Assembly (NCBI GenBank): GCA_963697065.1
Contig: CAVOMQ010000001.1
Location: forward strand, 1,410,518-1,474,517
Source: an uncultured Gemmatimonadales bacterium
Lineage (GTDB): Bacteria > Gemmatimonadota > Gemmatimonadetes > Gemmatimonadales > GWC2-71-9
Length of the DNA stretch: 64,000 nucleotides
Direction: 5' to 3'
Shown here: piece after piece, positions 992 through 33,831 of the stretch
Layout: each line of letters opens with the position of its first letter
How positions within the stretch are numbered: the first letter of the stretch is position 1
Position numbers and translations under genes: made by a program
The notes under the pieces: generated by a model
What the model saw: only the letters and a program-made list of their open reading frames with translations
Databases searched by the model: none
What the model was told of the DNA's origin: nothing

Positions 992-3174
<2,183 letters not shown>

Positions 3175-3591
3175 TTACGGTGTTTCCATCCCCTCTTTCT
3201 CCGCCGCTACCCGGAGCCGCTCGTCGAACGTGATGATCGCCCCCGTCGGTGGCGACCCGGCCCATTCCAACGCCGCCGAAAGCTGGAGCGCGTCGGCGGC
3301 CCGCAGGGCATGGATCCGGAGCAGCCGTGCGGCCTGGTCGCGGACGGCATCGGTCGGCTGAATCTCATACCACGCGCCCTGGAGCAGGGCGAGCGCTTCT
3401 CGCGCCGATTTGGCGTCTGGTTCGGCGAGGGTCCCGGCTCGCTGGGCCCGCATGATCGCCGAACTGCACTCGGTCGCTGTCCCCCACCAGACCACCAGCT
3501 CGTGGTCCTTTGCCAGCAGTTCGCGGGCGTGCGCCGTCGCCGGCTCGGCGACCAGGAGCGGCACGATCGCGGTGGCGTCCCAGAAGATCAT
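3175..3591 (-). CDS. vapC: PIN-domain toxin VapC
   Basis: 138 aa. The N-terminus 'MIFWDATAIVPLLV' carries the first PIN acidic residue, and the C-terminal part reads 'AIITFDERL'. A 4-nt start/stop overlap with the upstream antitoxin gene gives classic type II TA architecture. Confidence 0.85.
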   Translation of the reverse strand: MIFWDATAIVPLLVAEPATAHARELLAKDHELVVWWGTATECSSAIMRAQRAGTLAEPDAKSAREALALLQGAWYEIQPTDAVRDQAARLLRIHALRAADALQLSAALEWAGSPPTGAIITFDERLRVAAEKEGMETP

Positions 3592-3878
3592 CGCCCCTCG
3601 TTCCGGTCCTCGAGCAGCGAGGTCATCACGTGCCCGTCGCCATCTGCGGGAAGCGCCTGTGTCAGGAAATCCTTCGGCAGCGCATGGAGCGGCGGCTTCA
3701 TCTGCCCGTTCCGGATGAGCTGGTCGCGCCGGGCCGAGTCGTGCCGGGAGCCCCGGACGGCAATCACCTGTGCCACCGGGCGGCCGCGTTCCGTCACGAT
3801 GATCTCTTCGCCGGCCTTGACGGCCTCGAGGTAGGCAGAGAGGCGGGCCTTGAAGTCGGCGATGGGGGCAATTTTCAT
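3588..3878 (-). CDS. vapB: Phd/YefM-fold antitoxin paired with VapC
   Basis: 96 aa. The N-terminus 'MKIAPIADFKARLSAYLEAVKAGEEIIVTERGRPVAQVIAV' fits the prevent-host-death family pattern. The gene overlaps vapC by 4 nt. Confidence 0.8.
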   Translation of the reverse strand: MKIAPIADFKARLSAYLEAVKAGEEIIVTERGRPVAQVIAVRGSRHDSARRDQLIRNGQMKPPLHALPKDFLTQALPADGDGHVMTSLLEDRNEGR

Positions 3879-4080: not shown

Positions 4081-6819
4081 TCACCGTTGACCGAAATTCG
4101 TGATGACCCACACATCGGTAAGCGGCGTCGACACCACGGCGGTGCCTCGGCTACCGTCTGCCGAAAGCGAACATTGGCAGCCGTCGGGGAAGGGGAGCAG
4201 CTCGCCGCGCTTCTGGTCGCCACCAGTGATCGGCACGCGATAGATCGCCATCCGTTGATCGGATGCGTCGTTGCCGATCCACCAGAAGGTACCGGCGGTA
4301 GTCCACCACGCATCGCGGATGGTGTTGCTTCGGGCGATGGTAATGGGCGTGAACTTGCCGTCGAGGGTGACGCGCTCGATGGGAACATGGAGGTTCTGGT
4401 CGGCTCCCCAGGCGCGGCTCGGATCCGTCGGAACGATGAACAGCGCCAGCTCGCGGCCGTCGGGGGACGAGACCGCAAATGGTGTCGTGACCGAGTCCGG
4501 GAGAGCGATACGGCGGAAGATCCTGCCGGTGCCGTCGACGACGGTAATCGAATCGCCGTTCTTGTCGATCATGGCGACGCCGTCGGTGCCCGCCGCCACG
4601 ATCGCCGGGTTCCCCGGAAAATCACCGATGACGCTACTGGCGCCGGAGGCGACAGCGTACGACGTCAGGTGGGTACCATTGGCACCGTTGGGCGCCGCCA
4701 CGATGAAATGTCTGCCGTCGGACGTGAGCGTTCCGTCCGAGACCTGGCTCAGCGGCGGCGTGACGGCGTGGCTCCCGCCGCCGCCGAACGGCTCGGCGAA
4801 GTACTGCACCGCGGTGCCGGTGGCGGTCGCGGTGCGGGTGTCGTAGATGATTGTGGAACCGTCGGGGGTGATCACCGCCGAGAACATCGACGACGCGCTC
4901 CGCACCTTCCGGAGCGGCTGGGGGAATGCGCCGCTCCGTTGTGCCGCCAGGGTCCACAGCACCTGAGCCCCCGGCTGCGTCATCGTGTACGCCAGCATGG
5001 AGCCATCGGCCGAAAGGGAGAATTGGGGCGCATCACCACTTCCGCCGAGCGAGATGGTGTCGACAGCGCCAAGCCGGCCGGTCGACGGATTGACGGCGGC
5101 GTCGACCATGGCTGCTTCGCCGCCCGCAGTATGAATGCCGGCAAGGAGGTGCTTTCCGTCCCCCGACCATGCCACGTTGGCAATGTCCGATGGCTTGGTG
5201 GTGCTGTCGACGGCGTCTCCTTTGCGGTCGTAGAGGTAGACCAGGACGCGACCGGTGATCGTGGTCCAGACTGCCGCGATCCACTTGCCGGAGGGGGAAA
5301 CGGCCAGCTGCCCGATGCCCATGGTCGAGGGGTCCGGCGGCGGCCTGAGCGTGATACTGTCGGTTGGTTGCGTCCAGGGCGGCACGAATCGCCGCAAGTA
5401 TGCGGCGTTGCGGCCGGTGATCGGTCGGTTGGTCGCGAGCGCGGTGTCGCCGTCCGGCGTCATCGCCGCGACGCCGCCCAGCCCCACCAGTTGTCCACCG
5501 ACATGCGACATCGCGTAGGTCTGGCCGAGGTAACCGCGTGCCGGTGCGAATGCATTGACCAGCAACCACGCACCGTCGTGGCTCCACCCCAGCGGTTCGA
5601 TGTCGTCCATGCTGTCCACGAGCGTCTGCCGCGCGCCGGTCTGCCGGTCGAACAGTATGAGTTGCGTGTTGCAGCTGCCGTCGTCAGCGCATTCGCGCGA
5701 TCCGTAGACGACCTGCTTGCCATCGGGTGAAAGGAACGGATGACTCGCGTTGCCGGTGCTGGTGATCTGCACCCGTTGGAAGTTCTGCGGTTCGCCGCCG
5801 CCACCGGTGCGATGCCGCCAGACAGCCAAGGCGCCGGCCACGAGTGCCACGACGCCGAGCGCGAGCAACAGCCACATCCCCCGTGGTGTGCCGGCGGGTG
5901 CGACGCTGACCGGCGTCAACTGCGTCGGCGTCATGCCGCCGCTCGGCGTGGCGAGCGGCTCGAGTTGGGCCAGCAGTTCGCCAGCGCTCTGCCAGCGGTC
6001 GGCGGGGCGCTTCTCGAGACAGCGCATGATCACCGCTTCGAGCGCGGGGGGCACGGTGGCGCGACGTTTCGACAGCGGTTCGGGCGTTTCGGTGACCTGC
6101 GCGGCCAGCACCTGTTGCGGCGTGCCGCCGGTGAACGGCGGCCGGCCAGCGAGGAGTTCGTACGCCATGGCGCCGACGGCGTAGATGTCGGAGCGCTGAT
6201 CGACGTGAGGATCGGCGGCGGCCTGCTCCGGGGACATGTACGCCGGCGTGCCGACGGCCACGCCCAGTGTGGTGATCCCGCCGTGCGCCCCGCCGGGTGC
6301 GTCGGAGCGCCCTTCGGCGACGGCGCGGGCGACCCCGAAATCCGTCACCAGGGCATGCCGGCCGGAGAGCATCACATTGTCCGGCTTGATGTCGCGGTGC
6401 ACCACGCCGTGTTCGTGGGCCACCGCCAGCGCGTCGGAGATCTCGATCAGCAGGCGCACCGCTTCGCCGATGGGCAGTTCGCCTTCGCGGTCGAGGCGGT
6501 CGCGCAGCGACTGGCCCTTCACATACGGCATGACGTAATAGAGGAGGCCGCCGGCGTCGCCCGAGTCGAGCAGTGGCAGAATGTTGGGGTGTTGCAGCTG
6601 GGCCGCGATCTGGATCTCGCGGAGGAAGCGGGCGGCGCCCATTGACGCGGCGAGGTCCTCGCGCAGCACCTTGACGGCCACCTGCCGCTGGTGCTTGAGG
6701 TCCTCGGCAAGAAAGACGGTCGACATGCCGCCCTGGCCGAGCTCGCGCTCGATGCGGTAGCGATCGGCGAGCGCGGCGGAGAGGCGGGACAAGAGGGGCG
6801 AGTTGTCGGGCGAGGTCAC
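4081..6819 (-). CDS. Membrane Ser/Thr protein kinase with a C-terminal PD40/TolB-like beta-propeller
   Basis: 912 aa, intact. Hanks motifs: 'LGQGGMSTVFLAED', 'VAVKVL', 'HRDIKPDNVML', 'DFGVARA', 'GTPAYMSPEQ'. TM segment 'MWLLLALGVVALVAGALAVW'. The extracytoplasmic ~530 aa carry recurring 'SPDGK', 'SADGS', 'TPDGS', 'SSPDGR', 'SPSGKW' propeller repeats. Confidence 0.9.
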   Translation of the reverse strand: MTSPDNSPLLSRLSAALADRYRIERELGQGGMSTVFLAEDLKHQRQVAVKVLREDLAASMGAARFLREIQIAAQLQHPNILPLLDSGDAGGLLYYVMPYVKGQSLRDRLDREGELPIGEAVRLLIEISDALAVAHEHGVVHRDIKPDNVMLSGRHALVTDFGVARAVAEGRSDAPGGAHGGITTLGVAVGTPAYMSPEQAAADPHVDQRSDIYAVGAMAYELLAGRPPFTGGTPQQVLAAQVTETPEPLSKRRATVPPALEAVIMRCLEKRPADRWQSAGELLAQLEPLATPSGGMTPTQLTPVSVAPAGTPRGMWLLLALGVVALVAGALAVWRHRTGGGGEPQNFQRVQITSTGNASHPFLSPDGKQVVYGSRECADDGSCNTQLILFDRQTGARQTLVDSMDDIEPLGWSHDGAWLLVNAFAPARGYLGQTYAMSHVGGQLVGLGGVAAMTPDGDTALATNRPITGRNAAYLRRFVPPWTQPTDSITLRPPPDPSTMGIGQLAVSPSGKWIAAVWTTITGRVLVYLYDRKGDAVDSTTKPSDIANVAWSGDGKHLLAGIHTAGGEAAMVDAAVNPSTGRLGAVDTISLGGSGDAPQFSLSADGSMLAYTMTQPGAQVLWTLAAQRSGAFPQPLRKVRSASSMFSAVITPDGSTIIYDTRTATATGTAVQYFAEPFGGGGSHAVTPPLSQVSDGTLTSDGRHFIVAAPNGANGTHLTSYAVASGASSVIGDFPGNPAIVAAGTDGVAMIDKNGDSITVVDGTGRIFRRIALPDSVTTPFAVSSPDGRELALFIVPTDPSRAWGADQNLHVPIERVTLDGKFTPITIARSNTIRDAWWTTAGTFWWIGNDASDQRMAIYRVPITGGDQKRGELLPFPDGCQCSLSADGSRGTAVVSTPLTDVWVITNFGQR

Positions 6820-6891
6820 GAGTTGAATATCGCTCCGGTTCTGCGAACAGGCCAGAACGCGTGTGACGCGCGTCGTCGAGCGAGCATCGCT

Positions 6892-7992
6892 TCAGTCCCG
6901 GCGGAGCAGCCAGCGCCTCGTTGCCCCCGCCAGCCGTCGGACGTACCAGCGGCGCAGCGACGTGCTCAGCGCGTGGGCGGCTTCGGTGTCCCCGCGGGCG
7001 TTGGCGAGCGCGAGCGCCTCTTCGACGAAGCGGGCCTCGCTGGCGTCGGACGGCGTGACGCGGGCCACCAGCCCGAGGTCGTCGAGCGGCGGGAATGCAG
7101 GACTGGTGCGGTCGAGCAGGCGGAGGAGGGTCATGGTGCGGAGACATTTCTCGCACCGGCCGCAGTTGTAGCCCTGGTCCTGCCAGCACACGCGCAACAA
7201 CTCCGGCACGCCAGGCTCGTCGATGACGGCGGCGAGCTTCTCCCAGCGCTTCGCGTCCCGCCCATGATGGACGACGCGCACCGCGTCGCTCGACCAGAGC
7301 GGATCGGTCACCGGGTGCGACCCGTCGGGCCAGAGTTCCCGCCAGGTGTGCCCGGCGGCGATGAGGAGCGTGCCGGCGCCGAGGGCGTGGCCGATGGCGG
7401 CGAGGGCGGCGCCGAAATACATCGGCCAGCGCACGCCGAGGTCGTGCGCGACGAACCGGATGTTCGACTCCACTGCGAGCAGCGGAATGTCGCGACGCGC
7501 CAACCAGGCGCGATTGCGATCGCAGACTTCTTCCCACAGCGGGTTGTCGAGCTGCAGATCGATGCCGCGCACCACGACGGCGTGCGATACGGGACGGGGA
7601 GCGTGTGTCAGCGTGTAAAGGCCGTCGACGCCGCCGGAGAAGAACGACAGTACGGAGCCGGCCGGCGTTCCATCGGATGCCACGGTCGCCCGAACGGGAA
7701 CCGGAGCGAGCCGGTGATGGAACCGCGGACCCCAGAGACGAAACACTTCCTGCAGCTGCGCCATGCCGTCGAGCAGCGTGGCCGAAACCGGTAACGCTGC
7801 GTCGAGCTCGAGCGGTGTCCCCGTTGCCATGGCGAGAGGAAGTGCGGCGGCGGCGAACGGCTCGCCGCGGAGTCGCACCGGGACGTCTGCGGGAAGGCGG
7901 AACCAGAGGCGCTCACCGCCGATTCGTGCCGCCAGCTCCCGCCGTCCGTCGGCGAGGGTCAGCAGTTCCGGGTGGGACACGAAGGGCGGCAT
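6892..7992 (-). CDS. QueC-like PP-loop ATP-pyrophosphatase superfamily protein, paralog B (function unknown)
   Basis: 366 aa from ATG 7992; this is the C-terminal part of track ORF 6892..9114. PP-loop-like 'SFFSGGVDGLYT'. The C-terminal 'VCWQDQGYNCGRCEKCLRT' has C-x8-C-x2-C-x2-C spacing, as in the QueC Zn site. The ~110-aa N-terminal domain ('LWFRLPADVPV') has no motif I recognise. The start lies 1 nt after the paralog A stop (TAGcATG). Confidence 0.6.
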   Translation of the reverse strand: MPPFVSHPELLTLADGRRELAARIGGERLWFRLPADVPVRLRGEPFAAAALPLAMATGTPLELDAALPVSATLLDGMAQLQEVFRLWGPRFHHRLAPVPVRATVASDGTPAGSVLSFFSGGVDGLYTLTHAPRPVSHAVVVRGIDLQLDNPLWEEVCDRNRAWLARRDIPLLAVESNIRFVAHDLGVRWPMYFGAALAAIGHALGAGTLLIAAGHTWRELWPDGSHPVTDPLWSSDAVRVVHHGRDAKRWEKLAAVIDEPGVPELLRVCWQDQGYNCGRCEKCLRTMTLLRLLDRTSPAFPPLDDLGLVARVTPSDASEARFVEEALALANARGDTEAAHALSTSLRRWYVRRLAGATRRWLLRRD

Positions 7993-7993
7993 G

Positions 7994-9169
7994 CTACCAG
8001 TCCGGCGAGGGGCCCGCGCCCCACGAACGCAGGTCGCACACGGCGGGGTTCCACGGGTGTGCCGGCCGGCCCGCGCGCGGGCGCCGGACGAGATCGCGGA
8101 GGGCGCGACGGGCGCGCGCCCGCCGCACGGCGGATCGCAACGGGGCCGCCACGGTGCCCTTGCCGATCGACTCGGCGTAGAGCACGAGCTCGTCGGCGAA
8201 TTCGAGGTCGGTGCCGTCTCGCACAATGCGCGCATAGCGCTCGACCGGATTTCCGGCGGAGTCGACGAACGGCACCGCGTCGCACTCGAGGAGCGCCAGT
8301 GCGGCACGGGTCCGCAGACACTTGGCGCAGCGGCCGCAGTTCCGCAACGGATCGTTGAAGCAGACCCAGACGTGCCGCAGCAGCGCAGGCTGCGATGCCA
8401 GGGCCGCGATCTTCTCGGGCCGCGGGTGCGCCGAGCCGTGATGCACGATGGTGGTGGCCTCGGTGCTGAAGAGCGGATCGAGCACCGGATGGGTCCCGGA
8501 CGGATAGAGATAGGCATAACTGCTTGACGAGGCGATGAACGCCCGATCCGGCGCGAGCCAGTGTGACACCGCCTCGAGACAGCCGCCGTGAAGAATGCCG
8601 CGGGAGAGCCGGTGCCGGCGTCCGAGATCCATCCAGTTGGTTTCGATGGTGGTGACCGGGAGGCCGAGGTGTTGTGCGCCGTGGCCGAGGCGCTCGAGCG
8701 CGGCGCCGAGCTGTACCGGCGACATCTCGAAGTCGAAGCCGTTGATGAACAGCAGCCGTTCCAGCGCCTGCCGGTTGCCGCTGGCGGTGAAGAGGCCGTC
8801 GATGCCGCCGGAGAAGAATGCCAGTCCGCCGCGCCCAGCCGGGGGTGCGGAGGCGGCATTGGCCTGGACGGCGACGCGGTGCAACAGCGGATTCCAGCAG
8901 GTCCAGATGTCCTGGATGCGTTCGATTGCGCCGAGCAGCAACGGCGAGACCGGAGGCAGCGCCCGCAGGTCGAGAGCCGTCCCGAGGAACATGGCGGGGA
9001 CGAGCGCGATGGCGAGCCAGGGATCGCCGCGTTCGGCCACGTCGACGCCGACCGGAAAGCGGAACCAGATCGGGACGTCGCCCACGTCGGCGGAGACGCG
9101 CGTCCCGCCGGCATCCGCGTCGTGACGGACGTTGCGGACCGCGAGCGGCCGCGGTTCCGGGGACGTCAC
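7994..9169 (-). CDS. QueC-like PP-loop ATP-pyrophosphatase superfamily protein, paralog A (function unknown)
   Basis: ~391 aa from a putative GTG at 9169; this is the C-terminal part of track ORF 7994..10471. It is colinear with paralog B: 'IWFRFPVGVDV', 'AFFSGGIDGLFT', 'VCFNDPLRNCGRCAKCLRT'. The start codon is uncertain. Confidence 0.55.
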   Translation of the reverse strand: MTSPEPRPLAVRNVRHDADAGGTRVSADVGDVPIWFRFPVGVDVAERGDPWLAIALVPAMFLGTALDLRALPPVSPLLLGAIERIQDIWTCWNPLLHRVAVQANAASAPPAGRGGLAFFSGGIDGLFTASGNRQALERLLFINGFDFEMSPVQLGAALERLGHGAQHLGLPVTTIETNWMDLGRRHRLSRGILHGGCLEAVSHWLAPDRAFIASSSSYAYLYPSGTHPVLDPLFSTEATTIVHHGSAHPRPEKIAALASQPALLRHVWVCFNDPLRNCGRCAKCLRTRAALALLECDAVPFVDSAGNPVERYARIVRDGTDLEFADELVLYAESIGKGTVAAPLRSAVRRARARRALRDLVRRPRAGRPAHPWNPAVCDLRSWGAGPSPDW

Positions 9170-9282
9170 GACCTGCGCTCGTGGCGAGGCATGGGGTGCA
9201 ATCTGCCGGGAGAACCGGCGGGTTCCTAGCCCGGCCGCGGGATCAGGTCGGCGCGGTGGCCGCACCGCATCGCCCCGGTCGT

Positions 9283-9387
9283 TCAGCGCCGCCGCATCAC
9301 TATGACAATGAATACCATAGCGGCGACGACGCAGACGACGACGACGGCCCAGCGCAGCCATCGAGGGTACAGCGTCGCGGGGCGCAT
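9283..9387 (-). CDS. Candidate 34-aa single-TM micro-protein between PP2C and QueC-like A
   Basis: My translation is MRPATLYPRWLRWAVVVVCVVAAMVFIVIVMRRR*. The ATG lies 3 nt after the PP2C stop (TAGGACATG). It has a hydrophobic core flanked by Arg residues and GC-rich third codon positions. It is too short for the ORF track and has no clear SD. Confidence 0.3.
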   Translation of the reverse strand: MRPATLYPRWLRWAVVVVCVVAAMVFIVIVMRRR

Positions 9388-9390
9388 GTC

Positions 9391-10266
9391 CTATTCGGCG
9401 GGAACGACCCGTCCCACGATGATGCTGATGTTGTCGGTGCCGCCGTCGTCGAGGGCGTCCTGCAGCAGCTGCTCGCAGACCTGCCGGGCCGAGGTCATGT
9501 GGGCCAGGCGGTCGGCGATCTGCTCGTCCGGGACGTGCTTGGTGAGGCCGTCGCTGCAGAGCAGGTGGACGTTCATCCAGTCGGCCTTCAACCGGCTGAT
9601 GACCGGCATGGTGGACTGGCCGCCGATTGCGCTGGAGAGCACGTGGGCGAATTGGGAGCGCTGAGCGATGGCGCGGGTGAAGACCCCCTGATCGAGGAGA
9701 TCCTGGGCCATGGTCTGGTCGCGGGTGATCTGGGACAGCGCGCCTTCGCGATACAGGTAATAGCGTGAGTCGCCCACCTGGAGCAGATAGTACCAGGGCC
9801 AGACGCCCATCCAGAGGGTCAGTGTCGTGGCCATCTTGCCCGCCGGAAGCGATTCGGACTGGGCGCGTTCCAGGACCGCCTGGTGCGCCGTGAGCGCCGC
9901 CTGTTGCAGCGCGTCGATGAACTGCGACTCGCGCGCGTCGGCGCGGTAATAGCAATCCATGCTGCTGGTGACATACTGGGTGGCGGTCTGGAGGGCAACC
10001 GCGCTGGCCCGTTCGCCGCCTTCCCCGCCGCCGACGCCGTCGGCGATCATGGCGAGGAATGCCACCCGTTCGTCGGCGAAGGGGAGGCGTTCCTCGTCCG
10101 AGAGGCTGGTCTGCAGCAGCCGCATCGTCTTGTGGATCGACGCGAGAAGAAAGTGGTCCTGATTCTGCTTGCGGACCTTGCCAGCGTGCGAGAGGCCGAA
10201 GACGTCGATCTCGTCGTCGCGCGGTTTGCGATCGGTGGTGGGCAGCGAAGGCGTGTCGATGCTCAT
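9391..10266 (-). CDS. PP2C-family (PPM) Ser/Thr protein phosphatase
   Basis: 291 aa. Motifs: 'GLSHAGKVRKQNQDHF', 'MIADGVGGGEGGERAS', 'LLCSDGLTKHV', 'DDGGTDNISIIV'. The start overlaps the aminotransferase stop (ATGA). Confidence 0.85.
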   Translation of the reverse strand: MSIDTPSLPTTDRKPRDDEIDVFGLSHAGKVRKQNQDHFLLASIHKTMRLLQTSLSDEERLPFADERVAFLAMIADGVGGGEGGERASAVALQTATQYVTSSMDCYYRADARESQFIDALQQAALTAHQAVLERAQSESLPAGKMATTLTLWMGVWPWYYLLQVGDSRYYLYREGALSQITRDQTMAQDLLDQGVFTRAIAQRSQFAHVLSSAIGGQSTMPVISRLKADWMNVHLLCSDGLTKHVPDEQIADRLAHMTSARQVCEQLLQDALDDGGTDNISIIVGRVVPAE

Positions 10267-11474
10267 GCCGAAGCTCCGGCGGCGAGGGGTGTGGCGCGGA
10301 TCCGCTCGAGTGCCGCCACGGCGGCGCGGAGCGTCTCGGATCGCTTGCAGAACGCGAAGCGGACATAGCGCCGGCCGTCCGCGGACCCGGGACGGAAGAA
10401 ACTCGAACCCGGAACGGTCGCGACGCCGATGTCGGTGACCAGCCAGGTGGCGAAGGCCACGTCGTCAGCATCGCTCATGGCGGTGAAGTCGGCCAGGCAA
10501 TAATAGGCGCCATCGGGCACCGCGAAGCGGAAGCCGGCGCCCTCCAGGGCGCTGCTCAGCACGGCGCGGCGGTCGCGATATCCGTCTGCGAGCGTGGCGT
10601 AGTACTCGTCGCCGAAGCGATAGCCGATGGCGGCGGCTTCCTGCAGCGGGGCCGGTGCCCCGACGGTGAGGAAGTCGTGGACCTTGCGGATGGCGCCGGT
10701 GCGCTCCGGGGTCGCGATGGCGTAGCCGAGGCGCCAGCCGGTACAGGAAAACGTCTTGGAGAGCGACGAGATGGTGACGGTCCGCTCCCGCATACCCGGG
10801 AGCGTGGCGATCGGAACGTGCTCGCCGCGATAGACGATGTATTCGTAGGGTTCGTCGGTGATCACCAGCAGGTCGTTCGCGATGCACAGCTCCGCGATCG
10901 CTTCGAGCTCGGCGCGGGAGAAGACGTGCCCGGTGGGATTGTGGGGCGAGTTGAGCAGCAGCGCGCGGGTGCGCGGGCCGACGGCGCGGCGCAGCGCGTC
11001 GAGATCGACGTGCCAGTCGGGAGCGACGAGCGGCACCCACACCGGCACCGCCCCGGCGAGGATGGCATCGGGTCCGTAATTCTCGTAGAACGGCTCGAAG
11101 ATCAGGATTTCGTCGCCGGGGTCGAGCAACGCCAGCACGGTGGCCGCCGCGGCCTCGGTGGCCCCGCAGGTGACCGTGATCTCGCGTTCGGGGTCGACCT
11201 CGAGCTGGTACCGGCGATGATACTTGCCGGCGATCGCCTCGCGCAGCGATCGTGCCCCCCAGGTGATGGCGTACTGGTTGATGTCGTGCTCGATGGCGGC
11301 GCAGGCCGCTTCCTTCATCGCCGCCGGCATCGGGAAATCGGGAAACCCCTGGGCCAGGTTGATGGCGCCGTGGGCGTTGGCCAGGCGGGTCATGCCGCGA
11401 ATCACCGATTCGGTGAAGGTCGCGGTGCGGGCGGCGACGCGCTCAGGCCGGACAGTTCCGGGCGATCGGCTCAT
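10263..11474 (-). CDS. Class I/II PLP-dependent aminotransferase (YbdL / kynurenine-aminotransferase-like)
   Basis: 403 aa from ATG 11474; the track ORF extends to 11558. Motifs: 'QGFPDF', 'LLNSPHNPTGHVF', and 'SSLSKTFSCTGWRLGY' (the PLP-lysine motif). Confidence 0.9.
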   Translation of the reverse strand: MSRSPGTVRPERVAARTATFTESVIRGMTRLANAHGAINLAQGFPDFPMPAAMKEAACAAIEHDINQYAITWGARSLREAIAGKYHRRYQLEVDPEREITVTCGATEAAAATVLALLDPGDEILIFEPFYENYGPDAILAGAVPVWVPLVAPDWHVDLDALRRAVGPRTRALLLNSPHNPTGHVFSRAELEAIAELCIANDLLVITDEPYEYIVYRGEHVPIATLPGMRERTVTISSLSKTFSCTGWRLGYAIATPERTGAIRKVHDFLTVGAPAPLQEAAAIGYRFGDEYYATLADGYRDRRAVLSSALEGAGFRFAVPDGAYYCLADFTAMSDADDVAFATWLVTDIGVATVPGSSFFRPGSADGRRYVRFAFCKRSETLRAAVAALERIRATPLAAGASA

Positions 11475-11698
11475 GATGGCTGAATCTAACGCGCGAATGC
11501 GATCGCGGCGGTGCGCTGTTTGCGCCCGAAAGCGAACGCGGCAGGATCGGTTGTCCATGAAGAAGTCTTCATCGCACTTTCACTCCACCTTGGGGGATGC
11601 TCGATAAAGTACGTCGAAGCTGACCGTGAAGTGGGCCGGCCAGCGGTGCCGTGCCGTTTCAGAGCATGCACCGACGTTCACGAATCAGCCCTGTGATC

Positions 11699-28304: not shown

Positions 28305-29450
28305 ATGCCACGCCGATGCTTCCGACTTCCGGCCCCGCAGTCGAATCGAGCCGCGCTGCTCGCGACATTGCTGAGCGCGGCATGTGGCGGCGCGCCCCGT
28401 CCGCCCGGACCGTCCGTGTCACCGCCTCCCGCCGGCTCGGAAACAGCGCCGAGACCAGCGCTGCGGACCGCGCCGCCCGACCCGCAGCGCTACCTCGCGA
28501 ACCGCCGTCGCTTTGCGCTGACGATCGACGGCCGCCTCGACGATCCGGCATGGCGGGACGCGCCGTGGAGTCGCGGATTCGCCGACATCGAGGGCCCGAT
28601 CCGGGGCAAGCCACCACTCACCACCCGGGTGCGGATGCTGTGGGACGACCGGTACTGGTACATTGGCGCGGAACTCGACGAGCCGGATCTGTGGGCCACG
28701 ATCCGCCAGCACGACGCGGTGATCTTTCACGACAACGATTTCGAGATCTTCACCGACCCGAGCGGCACCACCCACCGCTATTTCGAGATCGAATTGAACG
28801 CCCTCGCTGCCGAATGGGATCTGTTCCTTCCGAAACCGTATCGCGACGGCGGAAGCGCCGAGAACGGGTGGGAGATTCCCGGATTGAAGCTCGCCGTGGC
28901 GCTGCATGGCACGCTCGACGATTCGCGGGACCGCGACCACGGCTGGACGGTAGAGCTGGCGATCCCCTGGGCGGCGCTGGCCGATTCGGGCCGCAATGCC
29001 GTGCCACCCGTGCCCGGGACGCAGTGGCGAGTCGATTTTTCCCGCGTCGAGTGGGACCTCGATCGCGCTGGCGCCGGCTATGTCAAGCGCACCGACGCCA
29101 CCGGTCATCCCCTTGCGGAGCACAACTGGGTCTGGTCGCCGCAGGGCGCCGTCAACATGCACATGCCGGAAATGTGGGGCGTGGTACAGTTCGGCGGTGC
29201 CGGCTGGCACGCCGATCCGGCGGCGGATGCCGCGAAATGGGCGCTGCGCCGCGTCTACTACGCCGAGCGCGAGTGGCAGGACGCCCGGCACCGGTTCGCA
29301 TCGCTGGCTGATCTCGCGCTCCAGCGTCTCCCGGCCGGTGTTACTGTCACCGCCACCGATTCGACCTGGAGCGCGAGGCTGGCCGAGCCGAAGAGTGCCA
29401 GGGTATGGCATATCCGCGCCGACGGTCTGGTGTGGTCCACCACCCACTGA
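28305..29450 (+). CDS. Lipoprotein with a CBM9/DOMON-like carbohydrate-binding domain
   Basis: Lipobox 'LLATLLSAAC'. Motifs 'FALTIDGRLDDPAWRDAPW', 'MLWDDRYWYIGAELDEPD', 'HDNDFEIFTDP', 'YFEIELNALAAEWDLF'. Confidence 0.6.
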   Translation: MPRRCFRLPAPQSNRAALLATLLSAACGGAPRPPGPSVSPPPAGSETAPRPALRTAPPDPQRYLANRRRFALTIDGRLDDPAWRDAPWSRGFADIEGPIRGKPPLTTRVRMLWDDRYWYIGAELDEPDLWATIRQHDAVIFHDNDFEIFTDPSGTTHRYFEIELNALAAEWDLFLPKPYRDGGSAENGWEIPGLKLAVALHGTLDDSRDRDHGWTVELAIPWAALADSGRNAVPPVPGTQWRVDFSRVEWDLDRAGAGYVKRTDATGHPLAEHNWVWSPQGAVNMHMPEMWGVVQFGGAGWHADPAADAAKWALRRVYYAEREWQDARHRFASLADLALQRLPAGVTVTATDSTWSARLAEPKSARVWHIRADGLVWSTTH

Positions 29451-29460
29451 GGAGCACCGC

Positions 29461-30525
29461 ATGGAACGGCGCCGGTTCGTCGAAGTGATCGGGGGGTCCG
29501 CGGCGATGTTCGCGCTGGCGCCGCCACTCACCCGGCGCCGTGACGACTTTGCCGCGTGGACCTGGGTGCACGGCAACGGTGACAGCGACACGGTCTGGCG
29601 CGCGAAATTCCAGCGGCTGGCGGATGCGGGGATCACGGGGGTTCTGGTGGGCGGCGGCGATCTCGACATACTGACGGCAGCCGCGCACGGGGCCGGGCTG
29701 TCGTTCCACGCCTGGACCTGGATGCTCAATCGCAGCGGCGATGCCAGGGTCAAGGCCGAGCATCCGGAGTGGTTCGACGTGAGTCGCAACGGCGACTCCA
29801 GCCTGACCCATCCCCCCTATGTCGGCTACTACCAGTGGCTCTGCCCGACGCGCCCGGAGGTGCGCGCCTATCTCGACGCAATCGTCGACGAGGCGGCGGC
29901 CCACCCCGGCGTCGACGGCGTGCATCTCGACTACATCCGGCACCCCGACGTGATCCTGCCCAGGGGACTCTGGTCGAAGTACCACCTGGTGCAGGATCAC
30001 GAGATGCCGGAGTACGACTTCTGCTACTGCCAGGTGTGCCGCGACACGTTCAAGGCCCAGTACGGCACCGATCCCTTGCAACTCCCCGCGCCGAGCGCCG
30101 ACCAGGCGTGGCGGCAGTTCCGGTACGACTCGGTGACCGATCTGGTGAAAGGGCTGGCACGGCGGGCCCACGCCCGCGGCAAGGCGATTTCGGCCGCTGT
30201 CTTTCCGACGCCGATGATCGCCCGCACGCTGGTCCGTCAGGCGTGGGACACCTGGCCGCTGGATGTCGTCTTCCCGATGCTGTATCACTCGTTCTATGAG
30301 GAAGAGATTCCGTGGATCGGCCGCGGCGTGGCGCAAGGCGTGGCGGCGCTGCCGGCCAGTGAGCCGTTGTATGCCGGATTGTATCTGCCGTCGCTCGATC
30401 CCCGCGAGCTGGCCGCCGCGGTGCGCACCGCCCGGGACAATGGGGCCGCCGGCGTCTCGTGCTTCGACTCCGGCGGCCTCACCGACCAGCACCTGACCGC
30501 GTTGCGCGGCGCGCTGCGCGGTTAG
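29461..30525 (+). CDS. Tat-exported family-10-like glycosyl hydrolase (GHL10/DUF187-like)
   Basis: 354 aa from ATG 29461, with GAGGAG upstream. Signal 'MERRRFVEVIGGSAAMFALA'. Motifs 'GVDGVHLDYIRHP', 'CYCQVCRDTFK'. Confidence 0.55.
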   Translation: MERRRFVEVIGGSAAMFALAPPLTRRRDDFAAWTWVHGNGDSDTVWRAKFQRLADAGITGVLVGGGDLDILTAAAHGAGLSFHAWTWMLNRSGDARVKAEHPEWFDVSRNGDSSLTHPPYVGYYQWLCPTRPEVRAYLDAIVDEAAAHPGVDGVHLDYIRHPDVILPRGLWSKYHLVQDHEMPEYDFCYCQVCRDTFKAQYGTDPLQLPAPSADQAWRQFRYDSVTDLVKGLARRAHARGKAISAAVFPTPMIARTLVRQAWDTWPLDVVFPMLYHSFYEEEIPWIGRGVAQGVAALPASEPLYAGLYLPSLDPRELAAAVRTARDNGAAGVSCFDSGGLTDQHLTALRGALRG

Positions 30526-33500
30526 TTGCCGCCGCCCCGTCCGCCGCCCCGCCCGGCGGGGGCACCCAGTTCCTCGGTGCTGATGACGATCGCGCCGTGG
30601 CCCGCGGCCTGGAGTGCGCCATTTACCGGCGGGAGCAGCGTCGCGAGATCGCGTCGGAGCCGCAGCAGCTGGACGTCGAGTTTCGGCACCAGATCGTTCC
30701 ACACCTGATAGGCCTGCGGCGGCGGCCGGCGCGAGCCGCTCGAAATGAACCCGGCCAGGGCGCCGATCTGATTGTTGAGGCGGATCGGGTAATTGAGTGG
30801 ATCCTCGCTGGCGTGGTTCTGGCTCTGGTAGATCGAGTCCTCCACCGACGTCACGCTGTCCTGGAGGGTCCGGGCTGCCGCGGCGAACGCGCCGCCGGAC
30901 GCGGCCATCACCGGCCGCAGCGAATCAAGTTGGTAGATCAGATTGCGGATGGTGCGCACCGCGTTGTTGGCTGCCGAGACCGTGTCGCGAATGCGGAGCA
31001 GGAAATTGACCTGCTCGGTGATGTCGGCGTCGGTGGCGTCGGTACGTGGGTCCTTCTCGACGTGCGCGGTGCGCACCAGCGGTGCGCCGCCGTCGACTGT
31101 CATGCGGACGGTATACGCGCCCGGGCCGCCGACCGGCCCGTTCAGTCCGTCGCCGTCCCAGTACACCGCGCCCCGGAAGTTCGTGCCGTCAGGGTAACGC
31201 AGCGGGATGTCGAAGTGATTCAACCCGACCGAATCGGTGACGCGGGCCGGCCCGCCGCGCCCGCCCCGGCCGAATCCGCCACGTCCGCCGCCGCCGCGCC
31301 CGCCCCGGCCGCCGACCGCGCTGTCCGCGCTCGAGACCTTCTGCAAGGCGGTGCCATGCGGGTCGAGCAGTTCGAGCTGCACGGTGTTTCCCGGCTTGGC
31401 AAGCCAGTAGTCGACGGTGACAGCGCCGCTGCTCCGGTACGTGACACCGGGCTGATAGAGATACGCCGCGGCACCGCGGTTGACCTGGTCGGCCTGGCGC
31501 AGCGGCGCGATGCCTTCGAGCGCATAGAAGCCGCGGCCCATGGTGGCAATGACGATGTCGTCGTCGCGCAGCGCAATATCGTGAACCGCCACGGGCGGCA
31601 GGTTGAGTCTGAGGCTCTGCCAGTGCGCGCCGTCGTCGTAGGAGATGTACATGCTGCGCTCGGTGGCGGCATACAGCAGCCCCGGGCGGACCAGATCTTC
31701 GCGGATGGCACGCGTCGGCTGGTCAGGCGGGAGTCCGTTGACGATCTTCGTCCACGTGGCGCCGTAGTCGGTGGTCTTGTAGAGGTACGGCGCGTTATCG
31801 TCCATCTCGTAGCGGTTGGCCGCGAAATACATCGTCCCGGGCTGGAAATGCGACGGTTCGACGATCGAGATGCGCGTCCACTCCGGCAGGCCTTTCGGTG
31901 TGACGTTGGTCCATGACGGCCTGGCCGCGTTGGCGTTGCGCGACAGATAGATCAACCCGTCGTCGGAGCCGGTCCACACCAGCCCGGGCTTTACCGGCGA
32001 CTCCTGCACGGCGAAGATCGTTCCGTAATACTCGACGCTGGTCTGGTCCTTGGTGATCGGACCGCCCGACGCGCCCAGCGTGGCGGGATTGTGCCGGGTG
32101 AGATCGGGCGAGATGACGTGCCAGGTCTGGCCGAGGTCGTTCGACTTGAACAGCACGCTCGATCCGACGTAGAGCACTTTCGGATCGTTCGGCGAATTCA
32201 TGATCGGATAGGTCCACTGGAAGCGGTACTTCGAGTCGCTGGCGTCGTGCCCCATCGGATTGAGCGGCCAGGGGTCCAGGCGCTCCGACTGGCCGGTGCG
32301 CTTGTTGCGCATCTCGAGGACGCCGCTGTAGTTGCCACCGAACGTCACGTCGGGGTCGAGCGGGTCGGATGCGACATAGCCCGATTCACCGCCGGCACCG
32401 CCGTAGCGCGTGGTGAAGTCGTACGGACTGGCCGGCGCACCGCCACGTCCCCCGCGCCCGCCCCCGCCGCCCCCGCCGCCGAATCCGCGACCGCCGGCCG
32501 CCCGGATCGGGAAGCAATCGACACCGCCGTCCTGTTCGGCGCCGCAGACGTCGTAGGGGAACGCATCGGTGAGGTGGACGTGATAGTACTGGCCGGTGGG
32601 AATCTCCGCGCTCAGCCGCGTCTTGCCACCGTCGGTGCTGATGACCACGCCGGGATCGCCGGCCACCGCGATGCGCTGCGGATCGTTCGGCGCGACCCAG
32701 TACTGATGAGTGTCACCGTTGCCGAGTCCCGACTGAAACGTCTTGCCGCCGTCGTGCGAGACGTACCCGCCGACGTTGCCGGCGTAGAGCGTGTTGGTGT
32801 CCTTCGGGTCGGCCGTGACCCTGCTGAAATACCACGCCCGCTGGCGGAGATTGCGGTCACCGTTCATGAACTGCCAGGTGGCGCCGTCGTCGTCGGAGCG
32901 GAACAGCCCGCCGGAATCGGCTTCGATCAGGGCCCAGACGCGATGCGGATTCGCGGGCGAGATCGCGATCCCGACGTTGCCCCAGATTCCGGTGGGCAGC
33001 CCCGAGCGGCCGCGAAGGTCGGTCCAGTGGTCGCCGCCGTCGGTCGTCTTCCAGAGGCCGCTTCCCGCTCCGCCGCTGACCAGCAGCCACGGCTTCCGTC
33101 CCGCCTGCCAGAAGCCGGCGTAGAGCACATCCGGATTGGACGGATCCATCGCCAGGTCGGAAACGCCGGTCGAGTCGTTGACGAACAACACCTTTTCCCA
33201 GGTCTTGCCGCCGTCACGCGTGCGATAGACGCCGCGCTCGCTGTTCGGTCCGAAGACGTGCCCCAGCGCGCCGACATAGACGACGTCGGGATTGGTGGGA
33301 TCGACGATGACCCGCGAGATATACTCGGTGGCTTTGAGCCCCATGTAGCTCCACGTCTTGCCCGCGTCGATCGACTTCCACACGCCGTCACCGTACGAGA
33401 CGTTGCCGCGGATCGGCGTTTCGCCGCCGCCCGCCCAGACGATGTCGGGGTTGGCGGCGTCCACCGTCACTGCGCCGACGGTGCCGCCGAAATAGGCATC

Positions 33501-33773
33501 GGTCATCGGCTGCCAGGTGTGGCCACCGTCGGTGGTCTTCCAGACCCCGCCCCCGGTGGTGCCGACGTAATACTCGTCGGGACGCTGCGCCGAGCCCACC
33601 ACGGACGTCATGCGCCCGGTGTGGGCGGGGCCAAGCATCCGCCATTCCAATCCGCGCCACAACGTGGTGTCGACGGTACCGGAACTCGTTGCGGAGGTTG
33701 GTTGCTGCGCGAGGGCGATGGCGGGGACGAGCGACAGGACAGCGAGGCGATGCAGGACGGCAACGCGGGACAT
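30522..33773 (-). CDS. Secreted BNR/Asp-box (sortilin/VPS10-like) beta-propeller protein with RGG-rich inserts
   Basis: 1083 aa from ATG 33773, with a signal peptide. There are at least 10 Asp-boxes: 'TTDGGHTWQ', 'SIDAGKTWS', 'TRDGGKTWE', 'TTDGGDHWT', 'SDDDGATWQ', 'SHDGGKTFQ', 'SNDLGQTWH', 'TTDYGATWT', 'SYDDGAHWQ'. Three Gly/Arg tracts are present. Confidence 0.8.
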   Translation of the reverse strand: MSRVAVLHRLAVLSLVPAIALAQQPTSATSSGTVDTTLWRGLEWRMLGPAHTGRMTSVVGSAQRPDEYYVGTTGGGVWKTTDGGHTWQPMTDAYFGGTVGAVTVDAANPDIVWAGGGETPIRGNVSYGDGVWKSIDAGKTWSYMGLKATEYISRVIVDPTNPDVVYVGALGHVFGPNSERGVYRTRDGGKTWEKVLFVNDSTGVSDLAMDPSNPDVLYAGFWQAGRKPWLLVSGGAGSGLWKTTDGGDHWTDLRGRSGLPTGIWGNVGIAISPANPHRVWALIEADSGGLFRSDDDGATWQFMNGDRNLRQRAWYFSRVTADPKDTNTLYAGNVGGYVSHDGGKTFQSGLGNGDTHQYWVAPNDPQRIAVAGDPGVVISTDGGKTRLSAEIPTGQYYHVHLTDAFPYDVCGAEQDGGVDCFPIRAAGGRGFGGGGGGGGRGGRGGAPASPYDFTTRYGGAGGESGYVASDPLDPDVTFGGNYSGVLEMRNKRTGQSERLDPWPLNPMGHDASDSKYRFQWTYPIMNSPNDPKVLYVGSSVLFKSNDLGQTWHVISPDLTRHNPATLGASGGPITKDQTSVEYYGTIFAVQESPVKPGLVWTGSDDGLIYLSRNANAARPSWTNVTPKGLPEWTRISIVEPSHFQPGTMYFAANRYEMDDNAPYLYKTTDYGATWTKIVNGLPPDQPTRAIREDLVRPGLLYAATERSMYISYDDGAHWQSLRLNLPPVAVHDIALRDDDIVIATMGRGFYALEGIAPLRQADQVNRGAAAYLYQPGVTYRSSGAVTVDYWLAKPGNTVQLELLDPHGTALQKVSSADSAVGGRGGRGGGGRGGFGRGGRGGPARVTDSVGLNHFDIPLRYPDGTNFRGAVYWDGDGLNGPVGGPGAYTVRMTVDGGAPLVRTAHVEKDPRTDATDADITEQVNFLLRIRDTVSAANNAVRTIRNLIYQLDSLRPVMAASGGAFAAAARTLQDSVTSVEDSIYQSQNHASEDPLNYPIRLNNQIGALAGFISSGSRRPPPQAYQVWNDLVPKLDVQLLRLRRDLATLLPPVNGALQAAGHGAIVISTEELGAPAGRGGGRGGGN

Positions 33774-33831
33774 CAGCGGAACCTCAGGCGACAATGGCGG
33801 CGTGCGCTCGACGGGGGAGCACAATGTTACC

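Follow-up and report, generated by a model that had tools for sequence, protein, structure and literature searches.

QueC, the best structural match of the proteins treated here, is a homodimeric enzyme that uses ATP to adenylate a carboxylate and then amidates it; it runs this reaction twice, reaching an amide in the first round and a nitrile in the second. PP-loop enzymes share this logic: ATP adenylates a substrate oxygen, pyrophosphate is released, and a nucleophile displaces AMP. QueC-fold PP-loop proteins also serve outside queuosine synthesis, as QatC in Qat and Cap9 in type IV CBASS. In the same superfamily, AsnB-type glycan amidotransferases (for example TIGR03108 of the XrtA/PEP-CTERM system) and N-acetyl-sugar amidotransferases of the WbuX/PseA type (TIGR03573) are precedents for enzymes that use ATP to form amides on sugars. 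Here we analyse two adjacent genes, paralogs A and B, in a 64,000-nucleotide stretch of an uncultured Gemmatimonadales genome (contig CAVOMQ010000001.1, positions 1,410,518 to 1,474,517; hereafter the window). A and B carry a Cys4 knuckle and have a QueC-like PP-loop fold, but stand outside the QueC family. Together they are probably a heterodimeric adenylating enzyme pair from an undescribed, glycan-associated family.

The comparison with QueC shows both kinship and distance. The PP-loop of QueC sits in a position matching that of A and B, and both groups carry a Cys4 knuckle in which CxxCxxC is followed by L-R, written CGxCxACxLR in QueC and CGRCxKCLRT in A and B. The first cysteine spacer is 8 residues in QueC (2pg3, 3bl5) but 7 in A and B, which corrects a first-pass annotation of this DNA that had read the spacing as exactly the C-x8 of QueC. 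QueC is a single domain of about 220–230 residues, whereas A and B have 366–391 residues, with an extra N-terminal domain and a helical tail. Finally, QueC genes keep company with queD, queE, queF and tgt, whereas the family of A and B keeps company with polysaccharide genes. A and B belong to a new, uncurated branch of the PP-loop superfamily that combines a QueC-type core with a new N-terminal domain and occurs in a glycan context.

Sequence, fold and family of A and B

Every gene of interest lies on the minus strand, in a region of 65–72% G+C. Open reading frames (ORFs) are over-extended in DNA of 68% GC, and the bounds of A and B are supported by the gene calls of relatives, in which the 391-residue A gene is called identically. 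The pair and its motifs are as follows:

7994-9169, minus strand: paralog A, a QueC-fold PP-loop protein of the A clade (translation of 391 residues, GTG start)
6892-7992, minus strand: paralog B, a QueC-fold PP-loop protein of the B clade (translation of 366 residues)
7990-7996, minus strand: A/B junction TAGcATG (stop, 1 nucleotide, start), in the context ...TGG TAG c ATG CCG...
9053-9067, minus strand: N-terminal WFRFP motif of A
7891-7905, minus strand: N-terminal WFRLP motif of B
8795-8812, minus strand: PP-loop of A, FFSGGIDG (SGGIDG)
7621-7638, minus strand: PP-loop of B, FFSGGVDG (SGGVDG)
8318-8362, minus strand: Cys4 cluster of A, CFNDPLRNCGRCAKC, C-x7-C-x2-C-x2-C, a presumed structural zinc site
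7144-7188, minus strand: Cys4 cluster of B, CWQDQGYNCGRCEKC, C-x7-C-x2-C-x2-C, a presumed structural zinc site

The first-pass annotation had described two colinear paralogs separated by a single nucleotide, each with a WFR[LF]P motif near the N terminus and an SGGxDG PP-loop. Its coordinates proved right, on the minus strand, and both motifs occur in both proteins. A and B share 34% identity across 332 residues (E 5e-51), far beyond chance, and have one layout in common: a family-specific N-terminal domain of about 110 residues, a Rossmann-like domain with the PP-loop at residues ~117–125, the Cys4 knuckle (VC-x7-CGRCxKCLRT) at ~268–287, and a C-terminal helical tail. Judged from the sequence, the TAGcATG junction is consistent with translational coupling of the two genes. 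A scan of positions 6700–9500 for promoter and terminator consensus sequences gave nothing informative.

Structure prediction connects these proteins to QueC. An AlphaFold2 model of B, built on an alignment of 20 sequences, scored a pLDDT of 95 and a pTM of 0.92, and its PP-loop follows a strand (residues 114–117) and runs into a helix (residues 122–130). The best match of this model in the PDB, found with Foldseek, is Bacillus subtilis QueC (3bl5_A; E 2e-3, probability 1.00), with 200 aligned columns, 14% identity and a TM-score of 0.54 on the target. Loop position and structural similarity both place the model in the PP-loop superfamily, and the QueC-like fold proposed at first pass is borne out by the top match. 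The first ~110 residues of the model had no PDB match in the same Foldseek search.

Sequence models, by comparison, leave A and B unclaimed. Neither had a significant match in Pfam, NCBIfam or PADLOC, the QueC models (PF06508 and TIGR00364) included, and sequence searches of the PDB, by phmmer and by a profile, returned nothing significant. One Pfam model recurs, that of the uncharacterised family DUF6395 (PF19932), which matches 16 of 20 members below threshold over the Cys-knuckle region. These matches reach 15.6–22.4 bits, against a gathering threshold of 25, and span only some 40 of the 174 profile positions; B is at 15.6 bits, A has no match, and 22.4 bits is the best in the family. A literature search found no paper that mentions DUF6395.

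The family is very large. We collected homologs by a word-indexed search and by a profile search run exhaustively over 1.84 billion cluster representatives (clusters at 50% identity). The former yielded 499 homologs, all labelled 'hypothetical' except for one UniRef entry automatically named '7-cyano-7-deazaguanine synthase'; the latter yielded 9,357 clusters at E<=1e-3 and 4,148 at E<=1e-30. Members were found in Gemmatimonadota, Gammaproteobacteria, Alphaproteobacteria, Acidobacteriota, Planctomycetota, Actinomycetota, Chloroflexota, Verrucomicrobiota, Cyanobacteria and Bathyarchaeia. A metagenome scan with B alone retrieved one 2.3-kb contig, and an exact-sequence look-up of family protein P0017 found no match.

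Conservation of the PP-loop and the Cys4 cluster, which the first-pass annotation had made a test of its proposal, holds across the family. In the seed alignment (A1), S119, G121 and D123 of the loop and all four cysteines (C269, C277, C280, C283) are invariant. Among 226 family sequences the loop reads SGGxDG in 123, SGGxDS in 69 and SGGxDA in 8, and 218 have the Cys4 cluster; its first spacer is most often 7 residues long (160 sequences), less often 9 (37) or 8 (11).

Glycan genes beside and within family chains

Gene neighbourhoods point to polysaccharide biosynthesis. We examined 80 homolog loci with flanks of up to 10 kb, clustering the flanking ORFs de novo and annotating them with Pfam and NCBIfam. 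Polysaccharide genes of the exopolysaccharide type lie within 10 kb on either side in 51 of 75 loci and immediately beside the family gene in 28. Most frequent directly beside the family gene are polysaccharide pyruvyl transferases (PF04230; present in 19 loci and adjacent in 14) and glycosyltransferases of family GT2 (26 loci, 11 adjacent), with GT4 enzymes in 28 loci (7 adjacent) and AsnB-like proteins in 10 (5 adjacent), a set that also catches the NAD synthase of loci L004 and L006. ATP-grasp enzymes, polysaccharide deacetylases, ABC exporters and FemAB-like GNATs occur as well, as do exopolysaccharide components of the XrtA/PEP-CTERM system (the XrtA-associated tyrosine autokinase and a PaaK-like ligase). 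On plasmid p4 of Azospirillum brasilense, a gene annotated as 'polysaccharide pyruvyl transferase family protein' precedes the family member. A Gemmobacter aquarius plasmid carries pyruvyl transferase, family member, ATP-grasp and GNAT genes beside ManB, ManC and a BY-kinase.

Natural fusions make the glycan link physical. Family domains (FAM) are joined to GT2 in P0124 (FAM-FAM-GT2), to pyruvyl transferase in P0128 (FAM-pyruvyl transferase-FAM) and P0172 (FAM-FAM-pyruvyl transferase), and to a FemAB-like GNAT in P0223 (GNAT-FAM). Within the clades of A and B themselves, glycan context takes the form of A-B-AsnB operons (L085, L091), an adjacent GT4 gene (L001, L002) and a sugar-transfer ATP-grasp gene (L005). 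The first-pass suggestion that the system is undescribed stands in so far as the family lacks a curated model (NCBIfam had none for 10 diverse members) and no description of it came up in literature searches on QueC-like or PP-loop proteins with polysaccharides or pyruvyl transferases. Its conserved partners, however, are polysaccharide-biosynthesis genes, which comes close to the outcome that the annotation itself had named as speaking against its proposal, save that no characterised family is involved.

The glycan amidotransferases share both superfamily and locus type with the family of A and B. Nevertheless, models of sugar and AsnB-type amidotransferases in NCBIfam and Pfam matched neither A and B nor 10 diverse members. 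The domain architecture differs too, as A and B lack a glutaminase domain and possess a QueC-type Cys4 knuckle.

A different substrate class has to be weighed against glycans. A and B could be divergent 7-deazapurine enzymes (QueC- or ExsB-like) or thiolases (TtuA- or LarE-like) acting on a nucleobase, nucleoside or tRNA: QueC and then TtuA are the best structural matches, the Cys cluster resembles those of both, and one UniRef label names a 7-deazaguanine enzyme. The tRNA thiolases of the TtuA/TtcA type do have a PP-loop and Cys-rich elements in common with A and B. As the second-best structural group, however, they match with lower probability than QueC (about 0.3–0.66, with root-mean-square deviations of 12–16 Å), and with neither a sequence match nor a tRNA context. 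The QueC Pfam model reaches at best E 0.056, in 4 of 20 members, and TIGR00364 gave no match. Among the 25 commonest neighbour families there is no queD, queE, queF or tgt family, and both the additional N-terminal domain and the existence of chains fused to a glycosyl or pyruvyl transferase also point away from this substrate class, which we consider quite improbable. We also looked for true QueC genes beside family members and rejected the candidates: the three QueC Pfam matches among neighbours are most likely AsnB-like proteins, the only neighbours in which a motif scan found an SGGxDS loop and ones that match the QueC model weakly.

A part in anti-phage defence, like that of QatC or Cap9, is another role that the QueC-like fold invites. 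A PhdYeFM/PIN toxin–antitoxin pair lies about 3 kb from the genes, and the domain of a nearby kinase matches the defence models PD-T4-6 and mad6, a generic kinase similarity. Yet PADLOC returned no family for A, B or the neighbouring PP2C phosphatase even at E<=1, so the check for a defence island yielded nothing in favour of such a role. The TatD, ATPase, TGT and CD-NTase partners of QueC-like defence proteins, whose absence the first-pass annotation had remarked on, occur neither in the window nor among the neighbour families. Nor did the neighbour analyses turn up QatA, QatB or QatD, or a CD-NTase with an effector. The family is instead distributed vertically, in glycan loci or in stable core synteny and not in variable islands, and its conserved neighbours are glycan genes. 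We consider a defence function highly improbable.

A and B appear to work as a unit. In a neighbour-joining tree they form separate clades, and among the loci examined neither clade was met outside loci with paired or multiple copies in Gemmatimonadota-type genomes. The coupling of stop and start is kept in relatives down to 50–58% identity, as a 1-nucleotide gap (L083, L085) or a 4-nucleotide overlap (L087, L088, L092), and some loci hold three to four alternating copies (L004, L007, L092). Elsewhere in the family, one polypeptide can contain two family domains; a dozen or more cluster representatives do so (P0121, P0122, P0171 and others). Some copies have decayed: the middle copy of L005 (3689-4804) lacks the PP-loop, and the second half of several two-domain fusions lacks the PP-loop, the Cys cluster or both (P0185, P0196, P0205, P0208, P0225). 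To judge by their motifs, such degenerate copies suggest pseudo-enzyme partners. A heterodimer is reasonable because coupled pairs, two-domain chains and partly degenerate copies are signatures of hetero-oligomers whose one subunit can turn non-catalytic. The heteromeric A+B enzyme proposed at first pass is therefore plausible, given the conserved coupling and the many natural chains with two family domains.

The explanation that we favour, by a little over even chances, is that A and B are anciently duplicated, translationally coupled paralogs from a very large, uncurated QueC-fold family that adenylate and amidate a glycan carboxylate. A and B would form a heterodimer comparable to the QueC homodimer. 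With ATP, this dimer would adenylate the carboxylate of a sugar or glycan substituent, for instance the carboxyl group of a pyruvyl ketal or a uronic acid. Ammonia or an amine would then displace AMP, so that an amide results, on the model of QueC, NAD synthetase and asparagine synthetase. We arrived at carboxylate amidation because the neighbours of the family either create sugar carboxylates (pyruvyl transferases) or form amides (AsnB, ATP-grasp and FemAB-like GNAT enzymes).

Several observations weigh against this explanation. An hhalign comparison of the family profile with Escherichia coli QueC aligned the PP-loop alone (probability 10.8%), and the last residue of that loop is G or A in A/B-type proteins in place of the canonical S or T. 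An AlphaFold2 model of fusion P0122 folded both halves but did not settle how they pack (pTM 0.50). Within about 10 kb of the pair the window contains no glycan gene, the link to pyruvyl transferases is concentrated in distant SGGxDS clades, and the surroundings of the A/B clade vary (kinase-TPR, Nramp/DtxR, multicopper oxidase, CsoR, PBP4). Moreover, ATP use, zinc binding, heterodimer formation, substrate class, product and nucleophile are all properties that we infer, for every member of the family. Our confidence in the glycan assignment for the window stays only slightly above even because it depends on homology, at 30–45% identity, to glycan-linked members and on a weak context within the clade itself.

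The phosphatase, aminotransferase and kinase bracket

In the window A, B, a PP2C phosphatase, an aminotransferase and a Ser/Thr kinase form a tightly spaced row of five genes in one direction:

10263-11558, minus strand: aminotransferase (Aminotran_1_2, E 2e-61)
9391-10266, minus strand: PP2C phosphatase (PP2C_2, E 1.6e-11), overlapping the aminotransferase by 4 nucleotides
9283-9387, minus strand: hydrophobic transmembrane micro-ORF of 34 residues
4081-6819, minus strand: membrane Ser/Thr kinase of 912 residues (Pkinase E 7e-50, PD40 E 9e-11, one transmembrane stretch)

All of these were seen at first pass, and each is present where it was described: the overlapping aminotransferase and phosphatase and the micro-ORF upstream of A, and the PD40 kinase starting 72 nucleotides downstream of B. 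The same annotation suggested that they may be a phosphorylation-controlled module. In its fullest form, kinase and PP2C would switch an adenylating or amidating A+B heterodimer whose substrate the aminotransferase supplies. Besides the compact row itself, the order aminotransferase-PP2C...A-B...kinase-PD40 in relatives whose B is 75–90% identical speaks for this module, as does a second lineage in which a non-orthologous kinase with a TPR sensor stands divergently beside the pair (L004, L006, L087, L088, L092).

The bracket is not kept across the family. Searched with tblastn using the window's own neighbours, PP2C and aminotransferase occur in none of the 80 homolog loci, and both are absent from the other five lineages of the A/B clade (L085, L087, L088, L091 and L092 among the loci examined). 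Even the closest relatives, whose order continues beyond the kinase as PhdYeFM/PIN-DnaK-HtrA, have extra genes inserted: a 630-residue multicopper oxidase and a small ORF between PP2C and A (L082, L083, L084), and, between B and the kinase, MscS (L082), MscS with Pyr_excise (L083) or HTH_3 with an unknown gene (L090). By blastn, the breakpoints coincide exactly with the B stop and with the point where the PP2C stop meets the micro-ORF start, and no multicopper oxidase, MscS, Pyr_excise or HTH_3 gene exists anywhere in the window. The bracket is compact, then, because the intervening genes are missing at two variable junctions, and the insertions in close relatives mark these junctions as indel hot spots and not operon joints. 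The adjacency of PP2C, aminotransferase and PD40 kinase is genus-level synteny and not a functional module.

The kinase requires separate treatment. With tblastn, a kinase domain was found in 6 of 80 loci, mostly kilobases away from the family gene; a looser jackhmmer set gave 11 loci with one immediately adjacent, and the top neighbour families include neither Pkinase nor PP2C. Within the A/B clade, a Ser/Thr kinase stands beside the pair in two of six lineages, and no other kinase occurs in the rest of the window or among the ~120 flanking genes with annotation, which by a rough, post hoc estimate exceeds chance expectation. The two kinases have non-orthologous sensors (PD40 versus TPR) and kinase domains that are 52% alike. 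The co-occurrence of kinase and pair in these two lineages is suggestive but weak, and kinase matches outside the clade are few and distant. The phosphorylation-controlled module finds no support, given the missing PP2C and aminotransferase and the genes that part PP2C and the kinase from the pair in relatives. We judge the complete module unlikely, and a kinase link peculiar to A/B-clade lineages rather doubtful, with about the same or slightly better prospects.

The upstream genes have ties of their own. The micro-ORF peptide, LYPGWLRWAVVIVCLVAAMVFIVIVLRHR, is conserved in relatives as an ORF of ~48 residues that overlaps the multicopper-oxidase stop codon (GTGA; L083 8592-8738, L082 ~8520-8660). 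In the window it starts 3 nucleotides after the PP2C stop, with the oxidase precisely absent. From these sequences it looks like a real gene for a small membrane protein tied to the oxidase and not to A and B. The 4-nucleotide overlap of aminotransferase and PP2C recurs in a relative at 78% identity (L083 4450-6611), and these two genes, an unusual coupled pair unlinked to the family, may be a unit of their own. An exact-sequence look-up of the window's PP2C found no match.

The other lineages of the A/B clade place different genes around the pair. A second lineage (L004, L006, L087, L088, L092 and probably L007) has the order NadE...SnoaL, then kinase-TPR, divergent from A-B (in some loci A-B-A'-B'), followed in some by a TonB receptor and then by Nramp and DtxR. 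A third has A-B-AsnB, with a CsoR-type repressor directly upstream in L085 (8449-8715), and L003 has PtsP and PBP4 near the pair. A multicopper oxidase lies directly upstream of the family genes and co-directional with them in L082 (6634-8526), L083 (6703-8595) and L084 (264-2156). Another lies upstream of a pyruvyl transferase-family pair on an Azospirillum brasilense plasmid (L093 5920-7443). It was not seen in the other ~85 loci, and we discarded a general oxidase linkage as confined to the window's sister genomes and that one plasmid. An Nramp gene with a DtxR-type repressor and a TonB receptor flanks the pair in the group of L004, L006, L007, L087, L088 and L092.

These neighbours raise the possibility that the Gemmatimonadota A/B clade was recruited to metal homeostasis, for example to make or amidate a small metal-binding metabolite. 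The oxidases directly upstream, the CsoR-type repressor, the Nramp and DtxR genes directly downstream of the pair in L007, L087, L088 and L092, and the TonB receptor in L006 and L088 would all fit such a role. Each association is limited, however, to one closely related lineage (Nramp is 78–82% identical across loci), the window has no oxidase, such genes are not enriched across the 80 loci, and metal genes are common in general. They could reflect lineage synteny or hint at a metal-related role; recruitment of the clade to metal homeostasis strikes us as improbable.

Further observations concern the wider window. The PhdYeFM antitoxin/PIN toxin pair (3175-3878, minus strand) lies directly downstream of the kinase and is kept in L082, L083 and L090. 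Beyond it, dnaK (HSP70; 998-2901, minus strand) is spread over three reading frames (tblastn pieces 2901-2563, 2585-2037 and 2119-998, 91–94% identical to the intact 634-residue protein of L083), which implies two frameshifts, either assembly indel errors or a pseudogene. Unlike this dnaK, the reading frames of A, B, PP2C, aminotransferase and kinase are intact. On the other side, the best coding frame changes often between 12 and 19 kb. A CBM9-like gene (28518-29447, plus strand; 76% identical to the L083 copy, which lies on the aminotransferase side) and a Sortilin/BNR-type gene of 1100 residues (30522-33824, minus strand) stand ~17–22 kb from the aminotransferase. This distance indicates that the region left of the aminotransferase is rearranged relative to L083.

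A widespread candidate for glycan decoration

A and B are of interest mainly for the unannotated family they reveal, both for its size and for its link to polysaccharide pyruvylation. Some 9,400 clusters at 50% identity, from many bacterial phyla and some archaea, have neither a Pfam or NCBIfam model nor a solved structure, and we found no paper on them. The label '7-cyano-7-deazaguanine synthase' should not be allowed to spread to their genes. For the window itself, the kinase/phosphatase bracket is a by-product of local gene loss. The family has cultured carriers, namely Azospirillum, Gemmobacter, Thalassotalea and Aliagarivorans. Family genes in them include D3869_RS27265 of Azospirillum brasilense, next to the pyruvyl transferase gene D3869_RS27260, HYN69_RS18430 of Gemmobacter aquarius and FE810_09960 of Thalassotalea litorea.

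The family is a tangible candidate for an unassigned, ATP-dependent step in the decoration of exopolysaccharides, capsules or lipopolysaccharide. A bolder and tentative conjecture, which we would not expect to hold in full, is that A/B-type proteins are, as a QueC-like hetero- or pseudo-dimer, the catalytic core of an unrecognised and extremely widespread glycan decoration that adenylates pyruvyl or uronic carboxylates, turns them into amides or nitriles and, in Gemmatimonadota, is wired to envelope-sensing Ser/Thr kinases. If that is true, amide or nitrile conversion by these proteins would neutralise or re-functionalise acidic exopolysaccharides.

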